Source of the DNA: Escherichia coli
GTDB lineage: Bacteria > Pseudomonadota > Gammaproteobacteria > Enterobacterales > Enterobacteriaceae
DNA length: 64,000 nt
Strand: one strand, 5' to 3'
NCBI RefSeq assembly: GCF_044647545.1
Contig: NZ_CP172818.1
How positions within the stretch are numbered: position 1 is the first letter of the stretch; the number at the start of each line of letters is the position of its first letter. The notes below the pieces were generated by a model, which was not told where the DNA came from, ran no database searches, and saw only the letters and a list, made by a program, of their open reading frames with translations. This document shows, in pieces, positions 1 through 30,873 of the stretch. A program made the position numbers and the translations under genes.

Positions 1-1205
1 GGGTGACGGTACAGCATGTCGTACGGCAGGCCCAGCTCCAGACCAATCTTACGCACTTCGTCTTTGAACAGCTCTTTCAGCGGTTCAACCAGGCCCATCT
101 TCATCTCTTTCGGCAGGCCGCCCACGTTGTGGTGAGATTTGATGACATGTGCTTTACCGGTTGCAGAAGCAGCAGATTCGATAACGTCAGGGTAGATAGT
201 GCCCTGCGCCAGCCACTTCACGTCTTCCAGTTTCAGTGCTTCTTCATCGAATACTTCAACGAAAACGCGACCGATGATTTTACGTTTTGCTTCCGGATCG
301 TTTTCGCCAGCCAGCGCTGACAGGAAGCGATCTTCTGCCGGTACGTGAACAATGTTCAGACCAAAGTGATCGCCAAACATATCCAGAACCTGCTCTGCTT
401 CGTTGAGACGCAGCAGGCCGTTGTCGACGAATACGCAAGTCAGGTTTTTACCGATAGCGCGGTGCAGCAGCATTGCGGTTACGGAGGAATCCACACCACC
501 AGAGAGGCCGAGGATGACTTTATCGTCGCCTACCTGCTCGCGGATGCGAGCTACAGCATCGTCGATAATTTTCGCTGGCGTCCACAGGGCTTCACACTGG
601 CAGATATCACGCACAAAACGCTCCAGCATGCGCATACCCTGGCGAGTGTGAGTCACTTCCGGGTGGAACTGTACGCCATAGAAGCGTTTTTCTTCGTTAG
701 CCATGATGGCGAACGGGCAGCTTTCGGTGCTGGCTACGGTGATGAAGTCGGACGGGATAGCGGTAACTTTATCGCCGTGGCTCATCCAGACATCGAGCAG
801 AGGTTTACCGTCTGCTGTCAGAGCATCTTCGATACCGCGAACCAGTGCGCTGTCGTTTACGACTTCAACCTGCGCATAGCCAAATTCACGTTCGTTAGAG
901 GCTTCAACATGACCACCCAACTGCATTGCCATGGTCTGCATACCATAGCAAACGCCGAATACCGGTACGCCTGCTTCAAAGACATACTGCGGCGCACGCG
1001 GGCTGTTTTCTTCGGTGGTGCTTTCCGGGCCGCCGGAAAGAATAATGCCGCTTGGATTGAAGTCACGAATTTGTGCTTCTGTCACATCCCACGCCCACAG
1101 TTCGCAGTAAACACCCAGTTCACGCACGCGGCGCGCAACCAGTTGGGTGTACTGAGAACCGAAGTCCAGAATGAGGATGCGATGCTTATGAATGTTTTCC
1201 GTCAT
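1..1205 (-). CDS. guaA: GMP synthase (glutamine-hydrolysing), N-terminal ~400 codons; 3' end lies beyond the window start
   Basis: Minus-strand ATG at 1203-1205 translates [27 protein letters not shown]..., recognisable as GuaA. Absent from the ORF track because its stop is outside the window. The long plus-strand track ORFs 3..320 and 345..1208 are antisense shadows. Confidence 0.92.
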
Positions 1206-1273
1206 TGACGCTTATTCCGAGGCAAGTGAAACAGATAATATAAATCGCCCGACATGAAGTCGGGCGAAGAGAA

Positions 1274-2740
1274 TCAGGAGCCCAGACGGTAGTTCGGGGA
1301 CTCTTTAGTAATGGTCACGTCGTGAACGTGGCTTTCCTGAATGCCCGCACCGCTGATACGTACAAACTCCGCTTTAGTACGCAGTTCGTCGATAGTACCA
1401 CAGCCGGTCAGGCCCATACAGGAGCGCAGGCCGCCCATCTGCTGGTGAATGATCTCTTTCAGGCGACCTTTATAGGCCACGCGACCTTCGATACCTTCCG
1501 GCACCAGTTTGTCGGCAGCGTTGTCGCTCTGGAAGTAACGGTCAGAAGAACCTTTGGACATCGCGCCCAGAGAGCCCATCCCACGGTAAGACTTGTAAGA
1601 ACGGCCCTGGTAGAGCTCGATTTCACCTGGGGATTCTTCAGTACCCGCCAGCATGGAACCTACCATCACCGCGCTTGCACCAGCAGCGATAGCTTTGGCG
1701 ATATCGCCAGAGAAACGAATACCACCGTCAGCGATAACCGGAATCCCGGTGCCTTCCAGGGCTTCTACTGCGTCAGCAACGGCGGTGATCTGCGGAACAC
1801 CTACGCCAGTCACGATACGCGTCGTACAGATAGAGCCAGGGCCGATACCGACTTTAACCGCGCTGCAACCAGCTTCTGCCAGAGCGCGTGCCCCCGCAGC
1901 TGTTGCCACGTTGCCGCCGATGATTTGCAGATCCGGATATTTAGCACGAGTTTCACGGATACGCTGCAGAACGCCTTCAGAGTGACCGTGAGAGGAGTCG
2001 ATCAGCAGAACGTCAACGCCTGCGGCAACCAGCGCGTCGACACGCTCTTCGTTACCAGCGCCAGCGCCAACCGCTGCACCAACACGCAGACGGCCTTGCT
2101 CGTCTTTACAGGCGTTCGGTTTACGTTCCGCTTTCTGGAAGTCTTTCACAGTGATCATGCCGATCAGGTGGAATTCGTCATCAACCACCAGCGCCTTTTC
2201 AACGCGTTTTTCGTGCATTTTTGCCAGCACCACTTCACGGGCTTCGCCTTCACGCACGGTTACCAGACGCTCTTTCGGCGTCATGTAAACGCTAACCGGT
2301 TGATTCAGATCGGTCACAAAACGCACGTCACGACCGGTGATGATGCCGACCAGTTCGTTTTCTTCGGTAACCACCGGGTAACCCGCAAAGCCGTTACGTT
2401 CAGTCAGTTCTTTCACTTCACGCAGGGTGGTTGTCGGCAGCACGGTCTGCGGATCAGTTACCACGCCAGATTCGTGTTTTTTCACACGGCGAACTTCTTC
2501 TGCCTGGCGTTCAATGGACATGTTTTTGTGGATAAAGCCGATACCGCCTTCCTGAGCCAGAGCAATAGCCAGGCGCGCTTCCGTTACGGTATCCATTGCT
2601 GCGGAAAGCATAGGGATATTCAGACGAATAGTTTTCGTCAGCTGGGTGCTGAGGTCAGCAGTATTCGGCAGAACGGTAGAATGAGCAGGAACGAGGAGAA
2701 CGTCGTCAAACGTCAGAGCTTCTTTAGCGATACGTAGCAT
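1274..2740 (-). CDS. guaB: IMP dehydrogenase
   Basis: Track ORF 1274..2809 contains [18 protein letters not shown]... after a 23-codon upstream extension; start set at the internal Met to give 488 aa with CBS and IMPDH catalytic regions. Confidence 0.95.
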
Positions 2741-4245
<1,505 letters not shown>

Positions 4246-4268
4246 AAAAATCGCGTAAAAAGGTGCAT

Positions 4269-4488
4269 TAAGCCAGCACGAATTCAACGCGTTTTTTCGA
4301 TATTAAACCATGCCCATGCTGACAGAAGTAATCCACTGCACCACAAGCTTTTAACACCTGCAACGCCTGATGACACTCAGGACAAAGTGCCTTGATTTCG
4401 GTAAATTTTCTCCCGCAAGATCGACAACGAGCATCTCGCCGTTATCCTGATCAAGCATCATGCTAGATTGTGGACAATGCAGTTCCAT
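4269..4488 (-). pseudogene. yfgJ: yfgJ-like zinc-ribbon small protein, frame-disrupted
   Basis: Minus-strand ATG at 4486-4488 gives MELHCPQSSMMLDQDNGEMLVV... and stops after 45 codons. A second frame encodes ...ARCRSCGRKFTEIKALCPECHQALQVLKACGAVDYFCQHGHGLISKKRVEFVLA* ending at 4269-4271. The start-to-stop span is 220 nt, not a multiple of 3. Too short in either frame to appear in the ORF track. Confidence 0.45.
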
Positions 4489-4557
4489 ATGAAACGCTCC
4501 ACATTCGCAGCCATTCCCTCTCCGTTCAGAAAGGGAAAGCAGATAAAAACACGATAA

Positions 4558-6030
4558 TTACTTACTTTTCTTGATGTGCTTCATCAGACGCTTACGCTTG
4601 CGCATCTGAGTCGGCGTCAGGGTATTACGCTTGTTCGCATACGGGTTTTCCCCTTCTTTGAACTGAATACGAATCGGCGATCCCATTACGTCCAGCGATT
4701 TGCGGAAGTAGTTCATCAGGTAACGCTTGTAGGAATCAGGCAGGTCTTTCACCTGATTACCGTGAATCACCACAATCGGCGGGTTATAACCCCCGGCGTG
4801 GGCATATTTCAGCTTCACTCGACGACCGCGTACCAGCGGCGGTTGGTGATCTTCAACCGCCATCGTCATGATGCGCGTCAGCATAGAGGTCCCCACACGA
4901 CGGGTGGAGCTGTCATACGCTTCACGTACTGATTCAAACAAGTTACCAACACCACTGCCGTGCAAGGCAGAGATAAAGTGCACACGAGCAAAATCGATAA
5001 AGCCCAGACGGAAGTCCAGCGTCTCTTTCACCTGCTCTTTCACTTCCTGGCTCAGGCCGTCCCACTTGTTCACTACAATCACAAGTGAGCGCCCACTATT
5101 GAGAATAAAGCCCAGCAAGGAGAGATCCTGATCGGAAATACCTTCACGCGCATCAATCACCAACATCACCACGTTGGCATCTTCAATGGCCTGCAACGTT
5201 TTGATTACCGAGAACTTCTCTACCGCATCGGTGATTTTGCCGCGTTTACGTACGCCAGCGGTGTCAATGAGCACATACTCACGTCCGTCGCGTTCCATTG
5301 GAATGTAGATACTGTCACGCGTCGTGCCAGGCATGTCGTAAACAACAACGCGTTCTTCACCGAGAATACGGTTAGTGAGCGTAGACTTACCGACGTTCGG
5401 ACGACCCACAATCGCCAGTTTGATCGGCAGACTTTGCGGGTCGAAGTCGTCTTCCTCTTCTTCTTCGCCGTTCTCTTCCGCTTCAAATTGCGCCCAGTAT
5501 TCGGCGTCTTCGTCGACTTCTTCTTGCGGTGCGAGATCTTCCATCCACGGCAGCAGCACGTGCTCCAGCAGACTTAATACGCCACGACCGTGAGACGCGG
5601 CGATCGGGTAGATTTCACCTAAACCAAGCGAGTAGAAATCAACCACTGCCTGATCGGGATCCAGACCGTCAGTTTTGTTTGCCACCAGGAAGGTCGGTTT
5701 TTCACGGGAGCGCAGATGTTTAGCAATCGCTTCATCCGCCGGCATCAGGCCCGCGCGCGCATCCACCATAAACAGTACGACGTCCGCTTCTTCAATCGCC
5801 AGCAGCGACTGTTCCGCCATGCGGGTTTCTACACCGTCTTCTGTGCCATCAATCCCGCCGGTATCAATGCAGATAAACTCACGGCCTTCAATTTCCGCAC
5901 GACCGTACTTACGGTCACGAGTCAGACCCGGGAAATCCGCAACCAGCGCATCTCGGGTGCGAGTTAGACGGTTAAATAACGTGGATTTTCCTACGTTAGG
6001 GCGCCCGACAAGCGCGACCACAGGTACCAT
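4558..6030 (-). CDS. der: Ribosome-associated GTPase Der (EngA), tandem GTPase domains
   Basis: Track ORF 4558..6069 contains [22 protein letters not shown]... after a 13-codon extension; two G domains (GRPNVGKS repeated); 490 aa. Confidence 0.93.
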
Positions 6031-21161: not shown

Positions 21162-22007
21162 ATGTCCACGACATGGTTTGTAGGAGCCGACTGGCTCGCC
21201 GAACATATTGATGACCCGGAAATTCAGATTATCGATGCCCGCATGGCGTCGCCTGGACAGGAAGATCGTAACGTTGCTCAGGAGTATCTGAATGGACATA
21301 TTCCCGGCGCAGTGTTTTTTGATATCGAAGCGCTTTCTGATCACACTTCCCCGCTTCCGCACATGCTGCCGCGCCCGGAAACGTTCGCCGTGGCGATGCG
21401 TGAGTTAGGCGTTAACCAGGATAAGCACCTGATTGTCTATGACGAAGGTAATCTTTTCTCAGCCCCACGAGCATGGTGGATGCTGCGCACCTTTGGTGTA
21501 GAGAAAGTGTCGATTCTGGGGGGTGGACTTGCAGGCTGGCAGCGCGATGTTCTGCTGTTAGAAGAAGGTGCAGTAGAGCTGCCGGAAGGAGAGTTTAACG
21601 CCACGTTTAATCCTGAAGCCGTGGTGAAAGTCACCGATGTGTTATTGGCAAGCCATGAAAATACGGCGCAAATTATTGATGCCCGCCCGGCTGCACGTTT
21701 TAACGCAGAAGTTGATGAACCTCGCCCAGGTTTACGTCGCGGACATATTCCCGGTGCATTGAACGTTCCGTGGACGGAACTGGTGCGCGAAGGCGAATTA
21801 AAAACGACCGATGAACTGGATGCGATATTTTTTGGTCGCGGCGTCAGCTATGACAAACCGATTATCGTCAGCTGCGGCTCTGGTGTAACGGCAGCCGTGG
21901 TTTTGTTGGCACTCGCGACGCTGGATGTGCCAAACGTGAAACTGTACGACGGCGCATGGAGTGAATGGGGCGCACGGGCAGATTTACCGGTTGAGCCATT
22001 GAAATAA
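21162..22007 (+). CDS. sseA: 3-mercaptopyruvate sulfurtransferase (tandem rhodanese domains)
   Basis: Track ORF 21003..22007 contains MSTTWFVGADWLAEHIDDPEIQIIDARM... after a 53-codon extension; start set to give 281 aa; active-site CGSGVTA present. Confidence 0.9.
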   Translation: MSTTWFVGADWLAEHIDDPEIQIIDARMASPGQEDRNVAQEYLNGHIPGAVFFDIEALSDHTSPLPHMLPRPETFAVAMRELGVNQDKHLIVYDEGNLFSAPRAWWMLRTFGVEKVSILGGGLAGWQRDVLLLEEGAVELPEGEFNATFNPEAVVKVTDVLLASHENTAQIIDARPAARFNAEVDEPRPGLRRGHIPGALNVPWTELVREGELKTTDELDAIFFGRGVSYDKPIIVSCGSGVTAAVVLLALATLDVPNVKLYDGAWSEWGARADLPVEPLK

Positions 22008-22023
22008 GCTTTTTACAGGCAAT

Positions 22024-22053
22024 AAAAAACCGCCGAATTTGGCGGTTTTTTAT
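22024..22053 (+). terminator. Rho-independent terminator downstream of sseA
   Basis: Hairpin AACCGCCGAATTTGGCGGTT followed by a T tract, 17 nt after the sseA stop. Confidence 0.6.
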
Positions 22054-22469
22054 TGCTGGTCTGTTCCCTCAATATACCAAACACCCACGACACAAACTCC
22101 TAACCTCTTTCAACAAAAAATTTCTTTATTATATCCACTGCGGCCCTTTCCGCCAACTTAAAAAATGTTCGGTAATAAAATAACCTGGCTTATTAGTCCG
22201 AATTCGGACAAATATAAACAAATCAGCTCAATATTAAAAATACTAATCGGTAAAAGATATTACTTAAACGTGTAAATTCACTTTCTTTAAACAACAAAAA
22301 ACCGCCAAAATCAGGCGGTTTTTTGTTGCTGGTTTGGTTCGCGGCCTTTCCAGCAGATTGGCTTGTGTTGCATGAGCAACGCAGGTGCTTCACAGCAAAG
22401 CAATACTCGCCAGTAACTCTCTTTTTGTCAAGCGAAAGAGAGTAATCATTGTTTATTTAGCGTATTATC

Positions 22470-22757
22470 GACACCGGCCCTTTCCGCCGTCTCGCAAACG
22501 GGCGCTGGCTTAAGGAAAGGATGTTCCATGGCCGTAAATGCAGGTGTTTCACAGCGCTTGCTATCGCGGCAATATCGCCAGTGGTGCTGTCGTGATGCGG
22601 TCTTCGCATGGACCGCACAATGAAGATACGGAGCTTTTGTATCGTACTTATTGTTTCTGGTGCGCTGTTAACCGAGGTAAATAATAACCGGAGTCTCTCC
22701 GGCAACAATTTATTGGTGGTTAACAACCTTCAGAACAGCAGGTAAGCCCGAATGCCG
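22470..22757 (+). ncRNA. ryfA: RyfA-family small RNA locus; boundaries approximate
   Basis: Position between sseA and sseB matches where ryfA sits in E. coli K-12. Ends at hairpin ATGCCGCCCTTTGGGGCGGCAT plus ATTTT (22731-22757). 5' end not determinable from sequence alone. Confidence 0.35.
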
Positions 22758-22776
22758 CCCTTTGGGGCGGCATATT

Positions 22777-23553
22777 TTAGATTATCCGGTTCTGTTTAAA
22801 GTCACGCAAAAAACCACCCCAGCGACGTTCATAGAATGGCACAATATGTTCGGTAATAAAGTGGCTAATTCCTTTTTCCCCTTTTTTCACCTGACAAATA
22901 TCGATGGGTTCATCGCCAGGTAATGTATCGGTCGCTACACTTCCCGCCGCCTGAATAATTTCTTCGATATCACCATCGGCTTCAATGCCAATAAGTAAAT
23001 TAGGCTGTGCCTCTTTGTTCTCTTTAATTGAACAAATAAAAGCACGCTTCACCGGCTTAATAGTTTTAAATAAGGTGGTGAGAGAATCAATCATTTGTGC
23101 TGGTGGCTCTGCGACTTCCGATAATATCAGCGATTCACCGCCCTCCAGTACTTCCTGGCTGCTCAGCGGATTTCCTTCTTCACCAATCAACAAACTGATT
23201 TCACGCGGCATAAATTCTTTACCGGTTGGCAGTTTGGCATTAAGGAAGAGCGTTTCGCCAAGGGTCATCTCAAACAATGTGCGAACGGGCATTACGACAA
23301 ATGCCTGTTCGTCTTCAACCGCCTGTTGAAGTGCTTCTAACGAGGTAAAAAAAGGAATGACGCTGGTGCCGTCTTCTTTTTCCCAGTGCTGTAAATCAAG
23401 CGCGCTATCTTCAACCACAGCCTCGCCCTGCGCCGCCGTACCCGGCACCCAGACGGTGGATTCCAGTAGAGTACGGAAAAAGGCCGGGCGGTGCGCCGGT
23501 TCGGTTGCTGCTTTTTCCAGCAGGTCTTCAAGTTCATTTTTTGTTTCGGACAT
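22777..23553 (-). CDS. sseB: Enhanced serine sensitivity protein SseB
   Basis: Track ORF 22777..23562 contains MSETKNELEDLLEKAATEPAHRPAFFRTL... after a 3-codon extension; 258 aa. Confidence 0.88.
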   Translation of the reverse strand: MSETKNELEDLLEKAATEPAHRPAFFRTLLESTVWVPGTAAQGEAVVEDSALDLQHWEKEDGTSVIPFFTSLEALQQAVEDEQAFVVMPVRTLFEMTLGETLFLNAKLPTGKEFMPREISLLIGEEGNPLSSQEVLEGGESLILSEVAEPPAQMIDSLTTLFKTIKPVKRAFICSIKENKEAQPNLLIGIEADGDIEEIIQAAGSVATDTLPGDEPIDICQVKKGEKGISHFITEHIVPFYERRWGGFLRDFKQNRII

Positions 23554-24979: not shown

Positions 24980-25027
24980 TTTAGTTATCCTTATTCGTTT
25001 AACGCAAAACGGGTCCCCCCAGCCCAT

Positions 25028-30798: not shown

Positions 30799-30873
30799 TT
30801 GTCGGATGCGGTGTGAACACCTTATCCGACCTGGACCAAGCCTGATAAGACGCGTTAAGCATCGCATCAGGCA
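30799..30873. repeat. REP element pair
   Basis: TGTCGGATGCGGTGTGAACACCTTATCCGACC and GCCTGATAAGACGCGTTAAGCATCGCATCAGGCA between the iscR promoter and the trmJ stop. Confidence 0.65.

Follow-up and report, generated by a model that had tools for sequence, protein, structure and literature searches.

The region between sseA and sseB in the 64,000-nt stretch of Escherichia coli DNA analyzed here (hereafter, the window) is, with a probability of about 0.85, a tandem timR-timP array in which the second unit is intact and the first is a dead remnant that scores as the Rfam family IS128. The locus comprises two timR-timP (ryfB-ryfA) type I toxin-antitoxin units running from sseA to sseB, each built from an A-tract/GC-stem/T-tract hairpin, a minus-strand TimR/RyfB gene that would use this hairpin, a divergent promoter region and a plus-strand ryfA gene encoding the 41-aa TimP. 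At its far end, unit 1 carries 82-87 nt copied from the 3' end of sseB, and an AT-rich spacer of 113 nt connects it to hairpin 2. The hairpins themselves would represent the 3' terminators of two paralogous minus-strand TimR/RyfB antitoxin sRNA genes. Both the duplicated ryfA/ryfB (timP/timR) arrangement and IS128 are already known, and the only unusual feature of the window is a probable assembly artefact. The discovery value is small, the element being an Rfam family and the duplicated arrangement having been published; a practical consequence is that annotators of the sseA-sseB locus should check the minus strand, where the 'terminator modules' would belong to the 3' ends of antitoxin sRNAs.

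Andresen et al. identified ryfA as the gene of the toxin TimP and the divergently encoded sRNA TimR as its repressor, the two forming the type I toxin-antitoxin system timP/timR (PMC7667032); the mechanism of TimP/TimR is the subject of PMC11228461. Experiments on TimP toxicity and on repression by TimR come from Salmonella only, and TimR-like sequences in other enterobacteria have intrinsic terminators after them (PMC7667032). Shigella dysenteriae carries tandem ryfA1 and ryfA2 genes, each with a divergent RNA of ~100 nt, RyfB1 or RyfB2, upstream (Fris et al. 2017, PMC5333039). The features of the locus in the window are as follows.

21162-22007, plus strand: sseA (3-mercaptopyruvate sulfurtransferase), an ORF whose protein is annotated as sseA in relatives
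22019-22056, both strands: hairpin 1, an inverted repeat with its core at 22020-22055, CAATAAAAAACCGCC-GAATTT-GGCGGTTTTTTATTG, from an inverted-repeat search
22058-22125, minus strand: remnant of the unit-1 timR/ryfB1 gene and promoter region, an exact subsequence of a relative, with the pairing region lost
22126-22154, plus strand: remnant of the ryfA1 promoter -10 (TATTAT + AT left by deletions), start-site equivalent at ~22140 and the 5'-most ~14 nt of ryfA1 (GGCCCTTTCCGCC), recognized through direct repeat D1
22155-22164, plus strand: AACTTAAAAA, the remains of the ryfA1 leader ...CAAGCGGGCGCTGGCTTAAGGAAAGG after G-rich base loss, from alignment to a relative
22165-22179, plus strand: ATGTTCGGTAATAAA, the junction of a 325-nt deletion, consisting of ATGTTC and the tail of the sseB' pseudogene fragment (17/18 match to 22843-22860)
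22180-22291, plus strand: the IS128 'body', an AT-rich spacer between the units, 113 nt in relatives and present at one locus only
22292-22328, both strands: hairpin 2, CAACAAAAAACCGCC-AAAATCA-GGCGGTTTTTTGTTG, from the inverted-repeat search
22297-22396, minus strand: unit-2 timR (ryfB2-type) antitoxin sRNA, by homology to K-12 b4811
22403-22431, minus strand: predicted timR promoter TTGACA-17-GAGTAT, read from the sequence and positioned from the 5' end of K-12 timR
22474-22778, plus strand: ryfA2/timP mRNA with variable region TGTTT (RF00126, 314.5 bits)
22620-22745, plus strand: timP coding sequence, a 41-aa ORF (NF040796 toxic_TimP)
22752-22773, plus strand: ryfA2/timP terminator, from a terminator scan
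22777-23553, minus strand: sseB, an ORF supported by annotation in relatives

The original prediction had described two near-identical hairpins downstream of sseA, each flanked by A and T runs, and our results bear out this description. Hairpin 1 had predicted folding energies of -26.3 kcal/mol on the plus strand and -25.1 kcal/mol on the minus strand, and those of hairpin 2 were -23.0 and -25.7 kcal/mol, respectively. None of 200 shuffled sequences folded as stably on either strand, and z scores against the shuffles ranged from -5.8 to -8.0 in the four cases (2 hairpins x 2 strands). The stems contain CCGCC/GGCGG with A6 and T6 tracts at their flanks, placing U6 after the GC stem on both strands, so that both hairpins combine a stable GC stem-loop with a U-tract on each strand, as is characteristic of bidirectional intrinsic (Rho-independent) terminators. 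A simple terminator scan of the window called neither hairpin, since pairing between the A and T tracts lengthens the stem. There are exactly two instances of the core pattern AAAAAACCGCC-N5-8-GGCGGTTTTTT in the whole 64 kb vs 0 expected from shuffles. One compensated pair distinguishes hairpin 1 from hairpin 2 (CAAT/ATTG vs CAAC/GTTG, a change from T-A to C-G), and the two share the 3' flank CTGGTYTG.

We propose that hairpin 1 would terminate sseA on the plus strand and, in relatives with intact units, also the unit-1 TimR/RyfB1 sRNA on the minus strand, while TimR of unit 2, on the minus strand, would end at hairpin 2, which on the plus strand would close the unit-1 ryfA/IS128 slot. Since the hairpins are symmetric, plus-strand transcription from sseA or from the first ryfA slot would therefore be stopped as well. 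In K-12, the annotated 3' end of timR (b4811) falls in the equivalent of hairpin 1, and reads of the sRNA ECS011 end in the homologue of hairpin 2 (PMC3175480).

Judged from its sequence, unit 2 (22292-22778) is intact, with TimR, ryfA2 and timP all present. It contains the ryfA RNA and TimP ORF that define this type I toxin-antitoxin family, the ORF scoring 79.8 bits against NF040796 (cut-off, 45). Predicted pairing of the unit-2 TimR with the 5' region of ryfA gave a duplex of -64.1 kcal/mol, compared with -41.2 +/- 4.0 kcal/mol in shuffles; the unit has a divergent sRNA complementary to the 5' region of the toxin mRNA, and this sRNA is followed by a predicted intrinsic terminator (hairpin 2 on the minus strand, -25.7 kcal/mol, U6). 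Unit 2 accordingly shares with the described timP-timR system a divergent ~100-nt sRNA, a terminator, complementarity to the 5' end of ryfA and a 41-aa TimP ORF, whereas unit 1 of the window is without the toxin ORF and the pairing region and keeps only its terminator, degraded sequence from the sRNA and ~14 nt from the start of ryfA.

The layout of the locus is seen directly in close relatives. The flanks of the window match 82 E. coli genomes at >=99% identity, and the best matches reach 100.0% over 12 kb upstream. All members of this clade that were examined except one carry two complete units with two timP genes and ryfA matches of 312.6 and 314.5 bits; the single exception has an IS or other disruption at the locus. 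An 87-bp partial sseB pseudogene is annotated between the two units in the relatives. In NZ_AP022161.1, the two units can be aligned over their whole length, starting exactly at the hairpin and reaching GGTAATAAA (ending ...ATGTTCGGTAATAAA in the sseB tail), with identities of 84% in the hairpin module, 69% in the timR body, 88% in the promoter region, 71% in the variable region of ryfA, 97% in the rest of ryfA and 100% in the sseB fragment. The sseB' fragment of this relative is identical to its sseB at 82/82 positions, and the corresponding 3' end of sseB in the window (22777-22860, antisense) is the segment that was copied into the end of unit 1. The variable regions in the relatives are CGCGT in unit 1, which resembles ryfA1, and TGTTT in unit 2 (ryfA2). 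This pair corresponds, in this order, to RyfA1/RyfA2 of S. dysenteriae, whereas the window retains only the TGTTT (ryfA2) copy, its ryfA1 unit having collapsed. The suggestion of a duplicated sibling unit was therefore correct, in that the hairpins start two tandem timR-timP (ryfB-ryfA) units.

Traces of this duplication can also be recognized within the window. CGGCCCTTTCCGCC starts at 22141 and 22475, and ATGTTC lies at 22165 and 22521. Both pairs of motifs had been predicted, the first of them at 22144 and 22474, and both exist, with coordinates that were off by 1-3 nt. The pairing of the second ATGTTC, which had been taken to belong with the ryfA leader, does not hold, as the ATGTTC between the hairpins continues as the tail of the duplicated sseB 3' fragment; the hexamer is common to the ryfA1 leader and this fragment. 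Direct repeat D1 joins the 22126-22154 region with 22466-22488, and direct repeat D5 joins the timR region (22297-22396) with 22537-22555. A self-comparison of the window, which had been proposed as a check, found similarity past the hairpins in part of the interval. The similarity of the promoter/start motif was reached by 0 of 300 shuffles and the match of ATGTTCGGTAATAAA to the sseB tail was significant (1/300), while that of 22057-22130 was borderline (13/300) and none was detected for 22186-22291, all in shuffle tests confined to the window. The interval between the hairpins is AT-rich (GC, 0.24-0.39), and its GC skew is strongly and unusually negative.

Alignment to the relative clarified the state of unit 1. 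When gaps were tolerated, window positions 22064-22164 proved to be an exact subsequence of the ryfB1-promoter-ryfA1 leader of NZ_AP022161.1; the longest common subsequence between 22064-22163 and the 180 nt of the relative was 100/100, compared with 76.7 +/- 2.1 in shuffles. In this patch, 80 nt are missing in ~45 micro-deletions of 1-12 nt, which removed 40 of 45 G residues, and there are 0 substitutions. The further 325-nt deletion, between the two ATGTTC repeats, takes out timP1 and the body of ryfA1. There is no RF00126 match between 22057 and 22291, and unit 1 has neither a ryfA RNA nor a TimP ORF. Hairpin 1 is present, but the predicted interaction of the unit-1 minus-strand relic with ryfA (-33.5 kcal/mol) is at the level of shuffles (-33.1 +/- 3.5 kcal/mol), indicating that the complementarity of a divergent antitoxin sRNA is gone. 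A blastn search of 5,426 E. coli genomes found no match to 22057-22164, and an exact 24-mer from this segment was absent from the GTDB species representatives and JGI metagenomes. We infer that the unit-1 remnant does nothing.

Two minor features of this remnant were noted. A promoter-like sequence on the minus strand, TTGGCG-17-TATAAT (22156 to 22128), was rejected as a promoter candidate: both hexamers were made by the deletions, and promoter-like sites are no more frequent in this region than in shuffles. On the plus strand, the slot keeps a -10 box, the start-site equivalent (homologous to the G at which K-12 ryfA starts) and a strong predicted terminator, and a short RNA of ~200 nt is possible.

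The order in K-12 MG1655 is sseA, hairpin 1, the minus-strand gene timR (b4811), whose end lies in hairpin 1, a ryfA-type promoter with GGCCCTTTCCGCCG, and IS128, followed by hairpin 2, a second timR-like region, its promoter, ryfA/timP and sseB. We found ryfA at 5,591 places in 5,425 genomes, and ~3% of the genomes have two or more copies. The AT-rich spacer was present in 2,241 of 5,426 complete E. coli genomes (41%), always on the chromosome and nearly always as a single copy. With the spacer in 41% of genomes and >=2 ryfA copies in only ~3%, most spacer-bearing strains would therefore hold a relic first unit, as K-12 does. At least three types of left junction were found at unit 1, namely those of K-12, Rb-50 and the window.

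The region between the hairpins is already catalogued as a doubtful RNA, IS128, a candidate sRNA that emerged when the intergenic regions of E. coli K-12 were screened computationally (Rfam RF00125). In the window, RF00125 matched 22138-22338 on the plus strand over the full length of the model (1-209) with 188.4 bits (E, 2.5e-42), exceeding the gathering score of 80 bits; the K-12 match scored 261 bits and that in a two-copy relative 213 bits. The match lies between sseA and ryfA/sseB, syntenic with that of K-12 (L001 1516-1724), and ends at the same hairpin 2. The 5' ~40 nt differ: in K-12, IS128 is preceded by an intact timR and promoter and shows the junction CCGCCG/TGTTCGG, whereas the window has the deletion-derived AACTTAAAAA. 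In two-copy relatives, the match takes in the sseB' fragment together with the spacer and hairpin 2 and lies past the terminator of ryfA1 itself. A second, weak RF00125 match on the end of sseA and hairpin 1 (27 bits) is accounted for by the hairpin alone. The best explanation of IS128 is that it is a scar left by the loss of a ryfA/timP copy, made up of the ryfA promoter and first nucleotides, the duplicated sseB tail, an orphan spacer and the terminator of the next TimR. This reading supports the removal of IS128 from lists of sRNAs.

The spacer shows no sign of selection and looks to be evolving at the neutral rate, as K-12 and the clade of the window differ at 8/114 positions plus one indel in the spacer and at 25/422 four-fold degenerate sites of sseA, sseB and pepB. 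It is not recognizable as a decayed sseA 3' end or as further sseB 3' sequence (Smith-Waterman against dinucleotide shuffles, p ~0.56 and 0.12, respectively). A simple tandem duplication would be expected to leave sseA 3' sequence at this position, and no such similarity was detectable. Searches of phages, true plasmids, the remainder of the window and the corresponding loci in other species of Escherichia and Citrobacter gave no homologue of the spacer; the lone match in the plasmid collection is a 4.9-Mb record that is really a chromosome. In the representatives of other Escherichia species, the locus consists of one unit, and the spacer is absent.

The original prediction had raised a second uncharacterised small transcript between the hairpins, and this idea was not supported. 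In its most explicit form, IS128 would be a genuine, independent plus-strand sRNA transcribed from the retained ryfA1-type -10 (~22126-22131), starting at ~22140 and ending at hairpin 2. The full-length RF00125 match, the conservation of the -10/start motif with ryfA, the strong predicted terminator downstream and the retention of the element in 41% of E. coli genomes all speak for such an RNA, as does a 90-95 nt signal obtained with a double-stranded probe in the original report (cited in PMC3175480). However, in K-12 neither deep sequencing (0 reads) nor a strand-specific northern blot detected plus-strand IS128; the RNA at hairpin 2 is instead a 71-nt minus-strand sRNA, ECS011/IS129, to which the signal belongs (PMC3175480). 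We found that the ECS011 sequence is that of the unit-2 timR-like region of K-12. Furthermore, the body of IS128 diverges at the neutral rate, the match in two-copy relatives merely covers sequence past the ryfA1 terminator, the sequence upstream of the -10 is riddled with deletions and a promoter scan finds no plus-strand promoter there, and overexpression of IS128 in a K-12 screen had no effect on biofilm, motility or fimbriae (PMC4606813). An independent IS128 RNA is therefore improbable, and the interval is better described as a catalogued element in a unit that has lost its toxin gene and pairing region.

Two other readings of the interval are far less probable still. An ATG-initiated ORF of 36 codons does exist between the hairpins (22165-22275, MFGNKITWLISPNSDKYKQISSILKILIGKRYYLNV), but we give almost no credence to a small protein made from it: K-12 has GTG for ATG and a TAA stop after 17 codons, the closest relatives carry an extra C that shifts the frame, such that the ORF exists only through the 1-base deletion at 22224, and there is neither a Shine-Dalgarno sequence nor an NCBIfam match. 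Public gene calls contain no entry for the exact product of this ORF, nor for either of two ORFs unique to the allele of the window. Similarly, the hairpins could in principle be the terminal inverted repeats of a small, non-autonomous MITE-like element carrying the AT-rich segment, given that each hairpin is a palindrome, such that the two also form an inverted repeat with 79-81% complementarity and a separation of 236-245 nt. This too is extremely unlikely, as the AT-rich body sits at one chromosomal locus in all 2,241 genomes and on no true plasmid or phage, the homology between the units runs far past the hairpins (timR, ryfA, sseB'), and neither dispersed copies nor a target-site duplication were seen. 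The tandem timR-timP array with a relic first unit remains the preferred reading.

The condition of this first unit in the window calls for separate consideration. When the window was compared with NZ_AP022161.1 over 4557-64000 (~59 kb), we found 0 substitutions, and every difference was a deletion in the window; the lone apparent mismatch, at 22164, vanishes when the patch is aligned to the ryfA1 leader. The deletions lie at five sites.

22064-22164: the unit-1 patch
22224: a single C, in the spacer
25004-25025: the terminator hairpin between pepB and iscX
30835-30837: a REP element between iscR and trmJ
52393: the U-tract of the terminator between glyA and yphH

The deletions specific to the window are probably a sequencing or assembly artefact rather than a real allele, because similar deletion-only patches occur at the three other intergenic hairpin, REP and terminator sites. 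The micro-deletions are clustered, free of substitutions and biased towards G, and they lie in structured or repeated intergenic DNA; this combination fits consensus errors remaining from long-read sequencing together with a collapsed tandem repeat. It is appreciably less likely that the state of unit 1 is a natural allele, in which ryfA1/timP1 was lost by a deletion at the ATGTTC microhomology and ryfB1 then decayed. Loss of unit 1 did arise independently elsewhere, as the K-12-type junction is found in ~2,000 genomes and Rb-50 has another junction, and the spacer is far more widespread (~41% of genomes) than multiple ryfA copies (>=2 in only ~3%). In addition, the 325-nt deletion has a plausible 6-nt microhomology, and all five patches fall outside coding sequence, a pattern also compatible with real mutations filtered by selection. 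On the other hand, we know of no mutational process that fits such G-biased, deletion-only clusters, here ~45 micro-deletions within 100 nt that removed 40 of 45 G residues with 0 substitutions. The flanks, free of substitutions over 59 kb, leave no time for such decay, patches of the same kind recur in three unrelated places between genes, namely a terminator hairpin, a REP element and the U-tract of a terminator, and the sequence is unique with respect to the 5,426 genomes, the GTDB representatives and the JGI metagenomes. A more exotic and improbable alternative would be a genuine mutational process that is directed at structured intergenic DNA and leaves G-biased, deletion-only patches. 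The patches look technical, and they would mislead motif and RNA analyses of this assembly.

The zorO-orzO, ibs-sib and ldr-rdl loci of E. coli are other tandem type I toxin-antitoxin loci that pair a toxin mRNA with an antisense or non-overlapping sRNA and vary in copy number among strains. Their sequences are unrelated to timR-timP; zorO-orzO is also cited in the Shigella study (PMC5333039). A further, doubtful possibility is that the hairpin-spacer junction is a recombination joint at which toxin and antitoxin pairs are reshuffled, leaving expressed orphan sRNAs and a conditional plus-strand IS128 RNA with a role of its own; we consider this improbable. It would fit the layout of K-12, since the cognate TimR lies ~400 nt from ryfA there, and a mismatched RyfB1-type sRNA, ECS011, is expressed beside ryfA. 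Finally, the K-12 genes b4607 and b4608 ('ryfB' and 'ryfC') were considered as genes of the sseA-sseB locus and rejected, as both map to 2.698 Mb; the names RyfB1 and RyfB2 of Fris et al. differ from these in meaning.

The first ~85 nt of ryfA, the gene encoding TimP, recur as a diverged direct repeat in the timR gene region, which is transcribed in the opposite direction (timR region, window 22340-22400; ryfA, 22475-22560). The variable regions of timR and ryfA co-vary across lineages, as seen in the window and in three loci from other genomes (L018, L021 and L022); in other Escherichia species, for example, GCAGGCACCCCACAGTG pairs with GCAGACACCCCACAGTGC. In K-12 MG1655 (locus L001, 1357-1860), b4811 is the TimR that matches the TGTTT variable region of ryfA, and this gene adjoins sseA, with ~400 nt separating it from ryfA. 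The sRNA gene immediately 5' of K-12 ryfA is of the CGCGT (RyfB1-like) type, mismatched to ryfA, and it is expressed, being ECS011/IS129. Furthermore, K-12 ryfA joins a ryfA1-type promoter (TATCCACTGC) to a ryfA2-type variable region, which suggests that units have recombined with each other in the past.

The ATGTTC of the ryfA leader in the window opens a 24-codon ORF (MFHGRKCRCFTALAIAAISPVVLS; 22521-22595, plus strand). This ORF follows AAGGAAAGG and overlaps the site at which TimR pairs. Because the equivalent frame in the ryfA1 of relatives reaches a stop after 5 codons, it is probably not conserved as a peptide.

The window was also compared with NZ_AP022161.1, an E. coli genome carrying two full tandem timR-timP units between sseA and sseB. 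Over ~59 kb, no substitutions were found and the differences consisted of deletions only, including the following.

Deletion sites in the window relative to NZ_AP022161.1
25004-25025, pepB-iscX terminator hairpin
30835-30837, REP element in the iscR/trmJ interval
52393, glyA-yphH terminator, 7 nt missing from its U-tract
22224, IS128 body (the AT-rich spacer between the two units), one C missing

Every one of these four sites is intergenic, and the deletions have the look of consensus errors that remained in the source assembly. A promoter-like site on the minus strand, TTGGCG-17-TATAAT (22156 to 22128; 10/12 matches), is directed at hairpin 1, the terminator at the start of the first unit. 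Both of its hexamers are products of window-specific deletions, and the site is therefore probably meaningless. Identity to NZ_AP022161.1 ends upstream of 4557: in the adhesin region adjoining sinH, substitutions are dense at 4298-4556 and the sequence before 4281 is without alignment. This loss of identity in 1-4556 looks like an ordinary recombination boundary.

Disrupted or rearranged loci were observed in other genomes. In E. coli 06-00048 (locus L005, 480-2010), the IS3-family element ISEcB1 sits inside the loop of hairpin 1, and timR is joined directly to the ryfA variable region, with the ryfA promoter and leader deleted. In two genomes whose SseA protein is the same (loci L012, 2538-2987, and L011, downstream of 2550), ryfA1 is disrupted; one carries ~171 nt extra within ryfA1, and its timP call is truncated to 28 aa, and in the other neither the ryfA terminator nor sseB was found within 1.3 kb, probably owing to an insertion. 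Finally, Escherichia whittamii (locus L021, reverse strand, 520-700) has a ~180-nt insertion in the interval between the ryfA terminator and sseB; the insertion appears to resemble an ERIC/IRU repeat.
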